From assembly GCA_038870635.1 (NCBI GenBank), contig JAVZJR010000001.1, positions 360,712 to 393,582 of the forward strand: a DNA stretch of 32,871 bases, written 5' to 3'. The position numbers were made by a program. Below are positions 24,001 through 32,871 of this stretch, in pieces (the first letter of the stretch is position 1; the number at the start of each line of letters is the position of its first letter). Source of the stretch: Candidatus Bilamarchaeaceae archaeon. GTDB taxonomy: Archaea; Micrarchaeota; Micrarchaeia; Anstonellales; Bilamarchaeaceae.

Positions 24001-27000
24001 GTGAATTGATGAATAAGAAAATAGTTTTGCTAGTTTTAGCAGCTTTGCTGATTTTCAGCTTTGGCTGTATAGGTGGACAACAGACTCAGGAAAACCAACA
24101 AACAAAATACGGTGAAGGTCAATCAACAACGGATCAACAGAGTACGCAGCAACAAGAACAACAGAGCAGTGGCGAAAAACAAGAGGGCGGTCCATTAAAA
24201 ATAAGCGAAGTTTTTGGTAGTACTGTTCCTTATGAGTGCGTGGTAAAATCAAAAGACCCATCCGTACCAGTGACTACAAAAACATATATTAAAGGAGAAA
24301 AAATGAAATCCGTAATGACTGTTGTTTTTGAAGGAAAGACAACTACGAATGAAGTCATTGTGCCTGGCGATGGCTATGCCTATGTTCGCCTTTCTACCCC
24401 AATTAATAATTGTGAGTGGATGAAAATCCAGGTAAAGAAAGGTGATCCAGAAACAAATCCTTCTGATACATTAAGGCAATATGAAGAAGCTACAAAGTGG
24501 GAGTATAGTTGCACTGTCGGAACATTTGGCGATGATATATTTACAAAACCAACAAAAGCATGCACACAAGAAGAGATGATAGGCTCGGTTCCTTCCAGAT
24601 AATTTTTTATTTTTATTCTTTTTTTGTGCTTCTCTTTTTAAAATATTACAAACAAAATAATTATTGATGATGACGTGAACAACCTCTGATTGGTGATGAG
24701 GCCAACAGCGTCTGATTACTGTTTTCTAAGCATATCTATATCTCCTGTACGCTCATTCCATTTCATTACATTCGCTTTCTTTTCTTTCTATTTTCTTAAT
24801 TAGATGTTTTTAGCAAGTTTGCAGCAGTGCTCACTCCGTTCGCACAATCCCATATTTTTAAATGGATTGTAGTTCTTATTTGATAAAAACAAGCGTTTTT
24901 AAATCTCTTCTAAATAATAATTTTGAGGGATAAGGATGCAGTATTCAGGTTCAAGAACTTATATTTTGGGGTCTATAGGAGTAGGTGTATTGGGCGCTTT
25001 TTTTGCTTTGATTGGTGGGAGCGCAGGTTTTTCGATAGCAACCTTAATAGGAGGTTTTCTAGCCGGTCTTGGCGCATTAGGCGGCGTTTTGTTATGGAAA
25101 TATGGCTACATAATAATACCACTTTTGATGCAGAGAACAAAAACAGTTGTGGTTACTGACACTGGTTATGAGATTCCACCAGAACAAGACGTTATAGTGA
25201 AAAATGTAAACGATGTATATTACGCTTCTTGTTTCCTTACTTTAAGAATATACGAATCCGCCACAGAAAAGTCAGTAGATGAAAATATTTCTTATAATCA
25301 ATATTTTGAGAGGGCGATTTCGAACCTTAAATATGTTACAAAAATAGCCTATCTGCTTTTTGTAGAAGATGTTGGAGAGAAACGAAAGACTTTAGAGACT
25401 AAAAGAGCAGAAGCACAATTGCGTTTGGCAAGAGAAAAGGAAAAACCAGAACCTGATGTATTAAAGTTAGATAAATATGAAAGAGAAGTAGCGCACTGGG
25501 ATGCACAGCTTGCAAAATTAATAAAAGGTGTTAAACCAATGGGTGTTATCGCTTATGCAATGACTACTGCAACAGGTATAAGTAAAGAAGCAGCCATAGC
25601 AGCAGCAAGGACACAGGCAAATGAGTTAAAAACTGTACTTGCAAATGCTCTAAATGTAGAAGTGCTTCAATTAACCGGCGATGAAATGTTAAAATGCTTT
25701 GAATGGGAAAAATTTTATCCAGCATCAGTTAGGGAATTAGAGGAGGCTGTTTTCTGATGGTAATCGGAGGGAGACTAGTAATAAATAAAATTTCAAACAA
25801 AGAAATATCGAAAAGGAATATCTTAGTTTGGCCTCCAGAACCGCCAATGAGTATTCTTTTTGCAAATCCATTAGATTCGATTTACGTTGGTAGGACAAGA
25901 ATCTTTAATGTACCGTTTTATTGGAATCCTAAGAATGTTGCGAACCCTCACATAGCAGTTGTTGGTATTTCTGGTTCTGGTAAATCTTACTTTATTAAAA
26001 CATTCTTGTTACGTTCTTCTTATGTGTGGAACACCAATGCCCTGATAATTGATTGGGCTGGTGAGTACAAGGATTGGGTAAAAGAAGCCAATGGGAAAGT
26101 GATTGCCTTAGGTAAGGGTTCTTACTTAAATCTTCTTGATTTAGGTGGAATGAAACCCTACGATAGGATAAAACAAATAATGAGGACATTGGAGCTACTA
26201 ACTGATATTGCGCATTATCCTGAGCAACGTAGACTTACTGAACAAGCAATAGAAAAAGCCTATGTTGATGCAAAATTCAGAATGGACGCGCGAGAGCAAA
26301 AAGACGAGCTTGGAAGACCGTTGCAACCACCTACTCTTAAAGATGTGGTTAGAATATTAGAAGAACAGTCCGCTACTGGTTCTTATGAATTCCCCGCAGA
26401 ATTAGAAAATGCAATTTATCGTTTAAAACAATTTACTAAGGCCGGTGAAGATTATTTTGCACAGCAGAGTACTGTTAAGCTTGATCTTTTGATATCTTCA
26501 GGCATAGTTGATCTTGACCTTTCTGGTCTTCCAGACGAGCGTTTCCGTGCTCTTGCTGCATTGACTATATTGCAGTTCATAAAGGAAAAAATGCGTTTGA
26601 CAGAGTTGGCAGAAGCAAAAGGCATACGTTTGTTTGTCGTGCTTGATGAAGCCTGGAAAATATCAAAAGAAGAAAATAGCGATGCTGTCATGATAGTTCG
26701 TGAAGGTCGTAAGTATAACTTTGGGATGATTATCGCATCGCAAAACCCAACTGACATCAGCGAAGCAATCTTCAGCAACGCTGGTACTACATTTATATTT
26801 AAAATAAAGTTTGAGAGATTTTTAGATTATATGCAAGGCTCGCTAAATTTCAGTAATTATATGCGAGAAGAAATAGGAAGGCTAAGTGTTGGTGAATGCG
26901 CCGTAAATATGGCGCTTACAACCTCGATTCCATATCCATCGACCTTCCTTATGAATAAGGTAGAAGGCGAGGAGCCATCTAAGGAATTCTTTATAGACCT

Positions 27001-30000: not shown

Positions 30001-32871
30001 ATCGGTAAGATAAGTACACAATCAGAAAAAGATATTGATTTGAATATCGATCCACCTAGTGGCGAATATGTTTTAGTGGTAGTGGATGAAAGCGGAAAGC
30101 AATATGCCGCTTCTTATCTCACTGTTACTAGTTTAAAAATAGTTTACAAAGGGAGGGGTGCTTCCCCTTCTTCTTATGTATTCTCAATTACAATGAATGG
30201 AAATCCAACGCAACTAAATCAAGTGATTGTGAGCGTAGATGAAGGTAAATATGGAAGATTTACATATAACTCTGTTTTTTCTAATATTGAAGTTAATGTG
30301 GGAGATTATACAGGTAATAATGCGTTACCACCTGGTAATCATACGTTTGAGTTTACAGTAGGTAAACTTGTAGAAAAATACCACATTAATGTTCCTGTTC
30401 CTTCAATTCCATTATTCGGTGATCCGCTTTTTTTGGGAGGAGTTATTTTAGCTATTCTTATAGTAGGGGTCGGTATTGTTTTCGCTCGTAAAGAAGATGT
30501 TACATTTTCCATCGATATTCCTGATTTCCCGCCTCTTACTCGTGAAAAGATATCTGTTTCGACTGATGTGGTGCTATCCATTTTTGAAAAAGTTAACGCA
30601 AACTATCAATGGAAATTCACACCTTTACTTCTCCAAGAAATTAAAAGTGGTTTTAAAGAAATACACTATAAGGGTAATCCTATTTACATAACTGATTATA
30701 ACACTGAAATAATTTTAGATAAAATGAGTAAACAAGGTAAAATTGTTAAGATATTAAACTATTACGCACCTAAGATATGGGAAGAGAAATCACAGAAGTC
30801 GATTGTATATCTTAGCATGCTTCGAGCATTGCGTGATATATGTATAAACAATGCTGTGCCTTTTACAGGCTTGAATGAGTCTAAGGTAGCTGATAGTGAA
30901 ATTGATGTTATGGGCCAAAAGATGTTTGTTCATTTCTATTATGAAAATATTGATGTTGCCTCTCTTTTGAAAAAGATTCTACTAAACGTCAAGGACGGTA
31001 TAAATATAGTGCTTTTTGAAAATGAGGTAAAGAAAAACAAATTCAAAAAATTGCTTAAATCACCTTCTTTTATCCAAACAATATTAAAAATGGAGGCTGA
31101 GAGCAACAATATTCAATTGCTAACAATAACCGAGTTAGAAAAAATGATAAAGGAATTAAGAACGATATGAAATTTATATCATATCTATTATGGGTTCGGC
31201 ATTTAAACCTATATTTAATGTATTTCTTATAAAACCTATTTCTGTTTTGTTTAACCACCTGTACTCATCGTGTTCTTTGCTTAATTTAACCATCATATTC
31301 TTCGTTTCTGCCGCATAAACTAAGTAAATAGAGTGTTTTTCGTTCTCTCCTTTTTTGTAAACTGCTGAAGTAACACCCATAAATCTTAATGGTTTTTGTA
31401 CTGAAATTCCTGTTTCTTCTTGCAATTCTCTTACCGCGCTATCTTCTGGATGTTCCCCCCACTCTACGCTTCCCCCTGGGAATTCCCAAATTCCGTCCTT
31501 TCTTCTAAGTAAAAGTACTCTATCTTGATTAAAAAGAAGAACATAAACATTTGTTTCTTGTATTTTCATAAATACCGCTACTTCACTATTCTAACAAAAG
31601 TTTTTGTTTCAACTATCCCTAGCTTTTGCATAAGCTCTTCGTTAAGGAATTCAAGAGGTTTCCCACATATCTCACATTTAAATCCTCGGTCAATTGCTGT
31701 TTCAAAACTTATTATTGTAGACACACCACAAAAAGGACATATATAGTACTCCCCACTATTGTTTGAGGTTACTGCGCCGAATTTTTTTGTTTTTTCCTCT
31801 ACCCACTGGAAAATCTTGTTTTTGTTTAAGTACCAACTATAAGAGTACCAGCCAGTGTCATTATCTTTATATCTATTATACATAACAATACCTTCACTAT
31901 GAAGGATATTTAATGCCGCTCTTACATCACTTATTTTTATTTTCAATCTTTTAGCAATGTCTTCGTCACTTAGTGCCTTATCAAAATTTTTTATTATTGC
32001 AAGGGCGTTCTCTCCTCCGACTTCTATAAGTGTTTGTCTTACTATTGGTCGTGCTAAAAGTTCGTTTATTTTTTGCATTTCTTCAGCAGTGAGCGTATAT
32101 ACATCATTCTCTTTTTCTTCCTTTACTTTAATACTTTTTTTAGTTGGTAATTTTTTCTTATCTTTTTTTTGTTTGTCTGTTTTTTTCTTATTTTCTTTAA
32201 CAGGTATGACAACTGCTGTCTTTGCTTTTTTTATTAGGTTTTTTTTAGGTTTTTTTATTTTTTTTGATTTATCCTTATGTTTTTTATTTGCCAAGAAATC
32301 ACCTACTTTACTTTATTTTTTGTTATATTTAAATATTGTTCTTTTCGTCGGTAAAAATACCTCTAACTTTTTCGTCGCTTTTTCGTCTGAGCTTTTTGTC
32401 AGTTCTTATATGTTGTACTATATGATGCTAAATGTTTAAAAAGTTACTCAATTTGAGTATCTTGAGTATGGGGAATTTTATATTTTAGGTGAGCGTAAGC
32501 CTTTGCCATCGATAGCTATGCTATCGAGCTGTAAACGTATAGACGTTTACACAATTATAACACAGAAGTCAAAGGCTTCGTAAGAAGCCAATAAAACAGT
32601 AGAAAACATAAAAACCCCCGCCGGCACCGCTGAAAACCGGGGTAACGGCACATAGAAAACAGAAAGTATAACAGAGAAAACAGTAAGAAGCCAAGAAAAT
32701 AGGAGAAAACATAAAAACCCCCGCCGGCACCGCTGAAAACCGGAGTAACGGCACATAGAAAACATTAGAAATACAGAGAAAACAGTAAGAAGCAATGAAA
32801 ACAGTAAGAATAACTAAAAACGGGCCCGAAGGGATTTGAACCCTTGACCTTCGCCTTAGGAGAGCGCCGCT

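Follow-up and report, generated by a model that had tools for sequence, protein, structure and literature searches.

Genes for a split CedB/VirB4-type motor, pilins and CedA-like proteins in Micrarchaeota suggest a domesticated relative of the archaeal Ced system

The closest known systems to the genes considered here are Ced, of the Sulfolobales and Desulfurococcales (CedA, CedA1, CedA2, CedB, CedD and CedE), which is induced by DNA damage, and Ted, of the Thermoproteales. Ced is reported to import DNA (PMC9905601, PMC11823120), and import in Sulfolobus to require CedD (PMC11823120). Patescibacteria are described as carrying a domesticated, relaxase-free chromosomal type IV secretion system (T4SS) related to MPF_FATA in small, host-dependent cells, with PF18895/PF04956 pilins and a stand-alone VirB4-N-terminal-like protein (TrsD) encoded beside VirB4 (PMC12102498). 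Among the DPANN archaea, a T4SS-type ATPase has been proposed to act in host interaction in nanohaloarchaea, as part of giant proteins in which VirB4/TraG domains are fused to Ig repeats (PMC10266531).

In the genome of a Candidatus Bilamarchaeaceae archaeon, a tiny symbiont, five genes lie within a window of 32,871 nucleotides (the whole stretch of DNA that was analysed), all on the forward strand and where the survey's finding had placed them (Table 1). Their junctions overlap or nearly abut, and the GAGGG stretch before the first gene, together with a 333-base gap that follows a 207-aa gene ending at 24602, probably marks the head of an operon. Judged from sequence, the five genes look like a conjugation-type motor in two proteins with three partners of no known family. 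That the system is chromosomal, as had been proposed, and not part of a mobile element is borne out by the GC content of the operon (0.346, against 0.349 for the contig), by housekeeping genes on its flanks and by a gene order fixed over the whole class, across which identity is 49-89%; the components of the machine are encoded at six or more separate sites in this genome. A second locus had been claimed at C1:175315-178234, and there, on the minus strand, lie genes of 260, 477 and 233 aa that share 35-37%, 40% and 28% identity with genes 1, 2 and 4. The recurrence of the operon partners was also upheld, gene 1 being found in 73, gene 3 in 79, gene 4 in 75 and gene 5 in 73 of 80 loci read over 7-kb flanks, some of them truncated by contig ends. 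The system is carried by a cultured strain, Ca. Micrarchaeum sp. A_DKE, whose operon is covered by contigs from four RNA runs and, in two studies, by a single RNA contig (5330-14050) beginning at the first N-terminal gene, a weak hint of transcription.

Table 1. Positions in the window and predicted architecture of the operon genes and of the stretch preceding them.
Feature	Position	Strand	Length or remark	Predicted architecture	Basis
Ribosome-binding-like GAGGG stretch before gene 1	24920..24935	+			read from sequence
Gene 1 (g00409)	24936..25757	+	273 aa		
Gene 2 (g00410)	25757..27346	+	529 aa		
Gene 3 (g00411)	27343..27846	+	167 aa; start probably ATG at 27352	CxxC...CxxC putative zinc-binding head, basic helix, two membrane helices	alignment of 35 and hydropathy
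Gene 4 (g00412)	27831..28571	+	246 aa	soluble; alpha/beta head, 76-residue coiled coil, acidic winged helix	model, pLDDT 90
Gene 5 (g00413)	28582..31170	+	862 aa	membrane helix, large outer part, second membrane helix, conserved inner part of about 210 aa	model, pLDDT 83

Genes 1 and 2 had each been read as one half of a CedB/VirB4-type ATPase, and comparison with a 14-sequence alignment of crenarchaeal CedB supports both assignments: residues 72-252 of gene 1 align with CedB 56-217 (hhalign 95.5%, E 1.4e-8, 161 columns) and gene 2 with the CedB ATPase (99.7%, E 2.3e-25), reversed-alignment controls giving 0.1-0.2%. Gene 1, in which hydropathy places a hydrophobic stretch at residues 8-55, is best read as two N-terminal membrane helices followed by a CedB/VirB4 N-terminal domain, the first half of the motor. 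Its identity became clear only once it was aligned to the CedB alignment rather than to single sequences; the gene 1 profile was negative against each of three single proteins (two VirB4, one PrgI/TrsD-like) and found nothing beyond coiled-coil noise among PDB sequences. Among named Atlas clusters, those that come nearest are TraC-like/PrgI (0.80), a lead only. Gene 2, which starts about 60 residues ahead of its Walker A motif, is predicted to consist of a CedB/VirB4-type ATPase at residues ~23-390, of the HerA/VirB4 class, and a helical C-terminal domain of about 100 aa that belongs to no known family. The motifs GxSGxGKS (Walker A), VxDEAWK (Walker B) and REGRKY are present in 47 of 47 sequences. 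The C-terminal domain, encoded as a separate gene in 48 of the 80 loci, has no consistent Pfam family, and its calmodulin-like matches are too weak (best E 2e-5, over 45 positions) for it to be taken as an EF-hand. Homing inteins are present in three ATPases of the family.

The matches to NCBIfam models on which the survey's finding relied were reproduced, g00202 of the second locus covering CedB positions 9-174 (E 9.5e-5), g00201 covering positions 229-549 (E 4.5e-30) and g00410 matching the CedD, VirB4 and CedB models at about 1e-21; all of these scores are far under the curated cut-offs (700-bit for CedB), and only 2 of 66 lone N-terminal halves match the CedB model. No frame in the 80 loci was matched by both half-profiles, as a fused motor would be, and no longer homologue appeared among 7999 candidates of 502-2000 aa, a search that carries little weight. 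Split CedB-like pairs occur in four Thermoprotei genomes as well, and the split motor is not special to this lineage. In a 46-sequence tree the ATPases group with Ced at 92.4/83, whereas in a 42-sequence mixture-model tree their relation to Ced is an open fork, both trees having been built without proteobacterial VirB4.

The three partners are less readily named. In gene 3, some of the cysteines are replaced in several of the 35 aligned members, g00411 included, and there is no Pfam or NCBIfam match above cut-off. The gene 4 family lies 3' of the ATPase in both the main and the second loci. Its winged helix resembles that of CdvB/ESCRT-III (2xvc, E 2.1e-4) with a Z of 8.4, equal to that of Lrp/AsnC regulators, and has an acidic consensus unlike that of a DNA binder; the head gives middling matches to YwmB and the beta-adaptin appendage (Z 7.8), and Foldseek returned no match at E <= 0.001. 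Membership of the Cdv/ESCRT machinery finds no further footing, the likeness to CdvB being confined to the winged helix, the modelled head and single long coil not being an ESCRT-III core, and the ATPase being of HerA/VirB4 type rather than Vps4. The outer part of gene 5 contains a GH42 galactosidase-like alpha/beta domain (Z 11.4 on residues 161-355) and matches Ig-like domains. Its inner part, with one Asp conserved in 31 of 32 members and no family or PDB match, may by eye combine a winged helix with a degenerate PD-(D/E)xK-like fold; this nuclease-like reading is unconfirmed because the wide fold search spanned residues 109-607.

VirB2-type pilins and CedA/VirB6 homologues, which were missing from the survey's finding, have now been found. 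Of 23 pilins, 15 match T4SS_pilin and 14 match TrbC; their sole match in the PDB is TrwL of R388 (E 0.011), and against a 25-sequence alignment of CedA1 they reach an hhalign probability of 0.3%. An Atlas cluster from Micrarchaeota in which 23% of members carry Pfam CedA1 is a lead only. The CedA-like family aligns with CedA 11-200 over 182 columns (hhalign 96.2%, E 2.2e-9), against 0.1% for the reversed control. Among NCBIfam families CedA ranks first for it, matching 5 of 52 members (best 5.3e-6), and no Pfam family is assigned. An identity as an ABC transporter was rejected, the matches to two membrane domains in the PDB at 2.6e-5 reflecting membrane-helix likeness. This genome encodes 13 CedA-like genes, outside the window, and the genomes that have the family carry 1-17 matches each. 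CedA-like genes lie within 7 kb upstream of the operon in 30 of the 80 loci. In other families the pilin and CedA-like genes share a single locus with the operon, L194 and L195 having complete loci in which pilin genes and six CedA-like genes accompany the ATPase and two N-terminal genes.

The ATPase, the N-terminal half and the CedA-like family occur in an identical set of 111 of 121 phylum genomes, and the pilins in 110, counts that are not independent, as the genomes include kin. The derivation from a T4SS, already proposed, is now stronger because pilins and CedA homologues have been found and co-occur with the motor. The survey's extension of the system to the whole phylum does not hold, since 10 of the 121 genomes show no part of it and five of 17 families (f10, f11, f14, f16 and f17) yielded none with these queries; nor are two or more copies present everywhere, 8 of the 111 genomes having a single N-terminal gene, while in families f7-f9 one operon contains both N-terminal genes, side by side in tandem. 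In the 10 genomes without the system the ATPase profile found only HerA-like, ICE-like or giant-protein matches; among these genomes, G086 is the only one with giant ATPase-domain frames and one has an ICE-like MPF_FATA locus (L186). As to range beyond Micrarchaeota, a genome scan covered its best 80 of 491 loci, and a search of plasmids returned distant ATPases only, at 22-29%.

Within this genome, which is 89.6% complete, CedD-model matches are confined to the two known ATPases, PF03432 (Relaxase) and PF02534 (VirD4) were not found although their controls worked, and PF13814 (Replic_Relax) has no match, though its control also matched nowhere. In families f7 and f8 a third locus ends with an ATPase of 735-748 aa that has weak CedD matches (1.3e-5 and 1.7e-4). 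The earlier statement that there is no relaxase stands for the two families searched (PF03432 and PF13814), but as evidence it is weak, because relaxases are reported to be unidentifiable even on archaeal conjugative plasmids (10.1101/2024.09.27.615246).

Compared with Ced, the Micrarchaeota genes are alike in being chromosomal and in encoding a membrane-anchored CedB-type motor, a CedA-type polytopic protein that opens with a pilin-like hairpin, a small two-helix pilin and paralogous channel subunits, which in Ced are reported to be CedA and CedE (10.1101/2024.09.27.615246). They differ in that the motor is always two genes, whereas CedB is one chain (some Thermoprotei CedB-like genes being split), in the additional domain of about 100 aa on the ATPase, in the number of CedA-like genes (one to three in Thermoprotei), in a pilin that does not align with CedA1, in CedD not having been found in this genome and in genes 3-5, which have no known Ced counterpart. 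Unlike the Patescibacteria system, no PrgI/VirB3 gene is seen here (PrgI matched none of the five operon genes), the anchor lies within gene 1, no N-terminal domain belongs to the ATPase itself, the alignment of the channel is to CedA, and the organism is an archaeon. In contrast to the giant nanohaloarchaeal fusions, the Micrarchaeota motor is small, split and accompanied by pilins and CedA paralogues.

The operon is very probably the motor half of a chromosomal, T4SS-derived machine of the Ced kind in most Micrarchaeia, and the whole looks like a domesticated and previously undescribed relative of archaeal Ced. Gene 1, by homology a membrane anchor with the CedB N-terminal domain, would bind gene 2, by homology the ATPase ring, and on the model of Ced and R388 this motor would sit beneath a membrane platform of several different CedA/VirB6 paralogues and build a pilus or conduit from VirB2-type pilins. 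Genes 3-5 would be lineage-specific additions, gene 4 probably an adaptor and gene 5 a protein that touches something outside the cell. Our tentative reading of the job, given somewhat less than even weight, is contact-dependent uptake of DNA or another nucleic acid, taken either from kin, for repair, or from the host. Against import stand the failure to find a separate CedD or VirD4 in this genome, the pilins that do not align with CedA1 and the acidic winged helix in gene 4. Ced also offers no counterpart to the three extra partners or to as many as 13-17 CedA paralogues, and therefore the job may have changed.

Somewhat unlikely, and the strongest of the alternatives, is that the same T4SS-derived machine serves, like the relaxase-free T4SS of Patescibacteria, attachment and protein export aimed at the host, and that it moves no DNA. 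The failure to find CedD or VirD4 in this genome fits such a role, as do the many CedA paralogues, the several pilins, closer to bacterial VirB2/TrbC types than to CedA1, and the Ig-rich surface protein, and in a Saccharimonadia strain T4SS genes are reported to be essential to epibiotic growth (PMC12102498). The nearest profile matches of motor and channel, however, are Ced proteins and not MPF_FATA, gene 1 was negative against the three single VirB4 and PrgI/TrsD-like proteins, and no effector candidates were identified. That the motor has been repurposed internally, to pump chromosomes or to serve cell division, and that gene 4 is its CdvB-like adaptor with a winged helix, is improbable: the 2xvc match is equalled by many ordinary winged helices, pilin and CedA-like genes are found in a single locus with the motor, and 10 of the 121 genomes show none of the parts, points that count against the high conservation across the class, the likeness to CdvB and the homing inteins of three ATPases. 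Homing inteins follow a pattern of conserved, needed genes. That the genes belong to an integrated conjugative element, or to the remains of one, that exports its own or chromosomal DNA is very improbable and as a mobile-element reading already largely refuted, since T4SS ancestry, archaeal relaxases that are reportedly hard to detect (10.1101/2024.09.27.615246), homing endonucleases that imply some gene exchange between cells and the ICE-like locus of one system-less genome are set against fixed gene order, genome-like GC, housekeeping flanks, dispersal of the parts, catalytic motifs intact in 47 of 47 and the failure to find Relaxase, VirD4 or Replic_Relax (its control silent) in this genome.

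Returning to uptake, an unlikely but more specific form of it is that most Micrarchaeia build one large contact machine, of six or more different CedA/VirB6 paralogues, VirB2-type pili and the split CedB motor, that would draw DNA or another nucleic acid from the host. This machine could be the 21-nm barrel, not assigned to any gene, that the cell envelope of Microcaldus ARM-1 is reported to contain where host nanotubes meet it (PMC11329633).

No published description of a Ced-like machine in Micrarchaeota was found in a literature search; a word search of the text of PMC5498576 found no mention of VirB, HerA or FtsK, and these are absent from the text and 11 supplements of PMC8975820, whose other supplementary files may list such genes. 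It is an open question by what means Micrarchaeota attach to their hosts and exchange material with them, and the contact structures that have been imaged have no genes assigned to them. A concrete gene set is now offered, comprising the motor halves, channel paralogues, pilins and three partners and present in nearly all genomes of 12 of the 17 families sampled, and even if the export reading were true it would name the likely contact apparatus. Domesticated Ced-like machines would thereby be extended from Thermoproteota to a DPANN phylum, in parallel to the T4SS of Patescibacteria, and a host-feeding machine, if true, would mean that a Ced-type importer has turned from the repair of kin to feeding across phyla.

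The operon described by the survey (window 24936..31170, + strand) comprises five tightly packed frames running in one direction, genes 1 to 5, which encode an N-terminal half with anchor, an ATPase, a CxxC membrane protein, a soluble coiled-coil protein and a large surface protein; a TGATG overlap joins gene 1 to gene 2. The second split pair claimed at C1:175315-178234 was likewise recovered, with paralogues of genes 1, 2 and 4 (35-37%, 40% and 28% identity), tblastn gave no third copy in this genome, and the NCBIfam values quoted came out alike on rerun. Gene order is fixed, as had been proposed, the partners recurring across 80 loci (gene 1 in 73, gene 3 in 79, gene 4 in 75 and gene 5 in 73) with exceptions at L044 and L046, where the N-terminal pair is sited elsewhere in the genome, and at L062, where no N-terminal gene adjoins the ATPase gene. 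At L046 a transposase-like frame (by eye) occupies the usual site of the N-terminal genes, which lie ~137 kb off, behind a CedA-like gene. A non-coding-looking repeat, recognised from overlapping spurious frames with identical wording, recurs at several sites in this genome (Table).

It had also been proposed that genes 1 and 2 (g00409 and g00410) are the two halves of a CedB/VirB4 ATPase. Because single sequences backed this only thinly, the CedB model being matched by just 2 of 66 N-terminal halves, profiles were compared with Thermoprotei CedB genes (14 full-length sequences fitting the Walker A pattern, from 31 loci). Residues 72-252 of gene 1 aligned with CedB 56-217 (95.5%, E 1.4e-8) and residues 23-387 of gene 2 with CedB 242-574 (99.7%, E 2.3e-25), while a reversed CedB alignment gave 0.1%; both CedB and gene 1 start with two hydrophobic helices, and the catalytic motifs of the ATPase are intact in 47 of 47. 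No frame in the 80 loci was matched by both profiles, the 150 best among 288 distant gene 1 homologues all measured 466 aa or less, and a weak search of longer proteins for a fused form found nothing. The split of the motor is real and old. It is not unique to Micrarchaeota, for in four Thermoprotei genomes (G124, G179, G182 and G188) a gene of 191-212 aa without membrane helices lies immediately 5' of a CedB-like ATPase gene, the N-terminal match being by profile in G124 and by eye in the others. These genes (L209/L212, L241, L242 and L243, in G124, G182, G179 and G188) are divided at the same boundary, and three of the four adjoin a ribosomal L15e-like gene (by eye), not cedA. Three ATPase genes (Table) are interrupted by inteins that contain LAGLIDADG homing endonucleases; there are two insertion sites, one at Walker A and the other just before Walker B.

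The survey listed no pilin, a gap now closed. Families f7 and f8 have a third copy, a divergent one, whose N-terminal gene is preceded by two others, one small and encoding two helices, the other polytopic. Of 23 such small genes, 15 match Pfam T4SS_pilin and 14 TrbC/VirB2, below curated cut-offs where shown; in the PDB their sole match is TrwL, the pilin of R388 (E 0.011). For the polytopic family the leading NCBIfam match is CedA, hit by 5 of 52 members (best 5.3e-6), and by profile the family aligns with Sulfolobales CedA (96.2%, E 2.2e-9); just as Ced CedA opens with a hairpin resembling its upstream pilin gene, this family has a pilin-like hairpin at its start (29%, E 5.8e-4). This genome has 13 CedA-like genes, one bearing pilin-like repeats. 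Its tandem pilin genes (C1:207057-208208) are identical over the first ~122 residues, the product of recent duplication or conversion, and one CedA-like cluster and one pilin gene are bordered by large membrane-anchored proteins (1078, >1344 and 1429 aa). In L194, which L195 resembles, a single run takes in the ATPase and a stand-alone copy of its C-terminal domain, two N-terminal genes, gene 3, six CedA-like genes and two pilins. At the second locus a pilin and a CedA-like gene lie immediately upstream in L034, L037 and L054-L057, but not in this genome. The third locus evolves fast. Besides a pilin, a CedA-like gene and an N-terminal half it has two ATPases, one short and one of 735-748 aa that matches CedD weakly, together with a frame that by eye resembles gene 4 and two small genes.

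Coordinates of features in this and related genomes
Feature	Position	Remark
nreA (DNA repair)	window 22809-23966	two genes upstream of operon, same strand
Non-coding-looking repeat	window 32547-32871; L001:14625-15059; L188:8187-8576, 10549-10842	this genome
CedA-like gene	C1:199673-200692	one gene
CedA-like genes	C1:223624-230968	six genes
CedA-like genes	C2:25898-33459	six genes
Free pilins	C1:207057-207500; C1:207780-208208; C1:292585-292848	this genome
Large membrane-anchored proteins	C1:220352-223588; C1:230968 onward; C1:288280-292569	this genome (G000)
Transposase-like frame	L046:4529-5425	
ATPase genes with inteins	L032:6485-9628; L033:2665-5829; L034:6420-9434	
Third locus	L192:984-8236; L193:889-8079	f7/f8
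ICE-like MPF_FATA locus	L186:4085-12348	G114
Giant frames	G086:C1:781266-794948	2942 and 3404 aa

Motor and channel, homologous to those of Ced, and the pilin, homologous to pilins of type IV secretion systems (T4SS), are inherited together. The 121 phylum genomes compared include the present one and G029, which is unpublished. The same 111 of them have a strong orthologue of the ATPase (E <= 1.3e-125), the N-terminal half and the CedA-like family (1-17 matches each), and 110 of these a pilin. With these queries none of the four was found in the other 10 genomes (89-97% complete; families f10, f11, f14, f16 and f17), where the ATPase profile met only HerA-like, ICE-like or giant proteins. The counts describe joint inheritance and, because kin are not independent, carry no statistical test. 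While the core of the survey's finding stands, its range and copy number, 'two or more copies across the phylum', were overstated, given these 10 genomes and the single N-terminal gene in 8 of the 111; in f7-f9 a tandem pair accounts for two of the N-terminal copies. One genome without the system, G114, has an ICE-like locus with a pilin, a seven-helix membrane protein, a PrgI/TrsD-like gene, a full VirB4 and a second ATPase, and two giant frames of G086, weakly matched by the ATPase, recall the giant VirB4-domain proteins of nanohaloarchaea.

Gene 3 combines a head with cysteine pairs and two membrane helices. The gene 4 model shows an alpha/beta head, a 76-residue coil and a winged helix; since this helix is acidic and matches that of CdvB no better than those of ordinary regulators, gene 4 is read as a putative protein adaptor. 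Gene 5 has two membrane spans either side of Ig-like domains and an alpha/beta domain, and its inner 210 residues are best conserved (41% against 30% mean column identity). By eye this part may be a winged helix with a degenerate fold that we take to be PD-(D/E)xK-like, a reading that searches did not confirm.

ATPases from the three Micrarchaeia loci group in a single clade (98.8/99 in a first tree, 98 in a second, with 11 rows dropped and 7 added). The first tree made this clade the sister of CedB/CedD at 92.4/83, the second placed it at an open fork, and neither contained proteobacterial VirB4. That the machine probably works like Ced, the archaeal DNA-import system, is supported by three homologous parts, while its descent may be from Ced or from another T4SS. 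The products of genes 1 and 2 would bind as motor halves, the CedA paralogues may join in one mixed platform, a pilus would be made and cargo would pass through the machine. Contact-dependent uptake of DNA or nucleic acid is the leading, though tentative, reading of its function, and is put no more strongly mainly because no CedD was found here and the channel subunits are much expanded. Attachment with protein export is less probable, and an internal role in division or segregation is doubtful. A mobile element is very improbable: GC content (operon 0.346, other clusters 0.348-0.371, genome ~0.35), the flanking NreA, Nudix hydrolase and TFE genes, and the failure to find relaxase PF03432, VirD4 PF02534 or a separate CedD in this 89.6% complete genome agree with domestication, although archaeal relaxases are poorly detected according to 10.1101/2024.09.27.615246.

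In passages of PMC12102498, PMC9905601, PMC11823120, PMC10266531, PMC11329633, PMC5498576, PMC8975820 and 10.1101/2024.09.27.615246, Ced and Ted, the system of Thermoproteales, are described in Thermoproteota only, and the present system is not described; a literature search, with subscription journals mostly outside its scope, likewise returned no description. A conserved variant of a domesticated Ced/T4SS in most Micrarchaeia is real, and it is apparently new to the literature.
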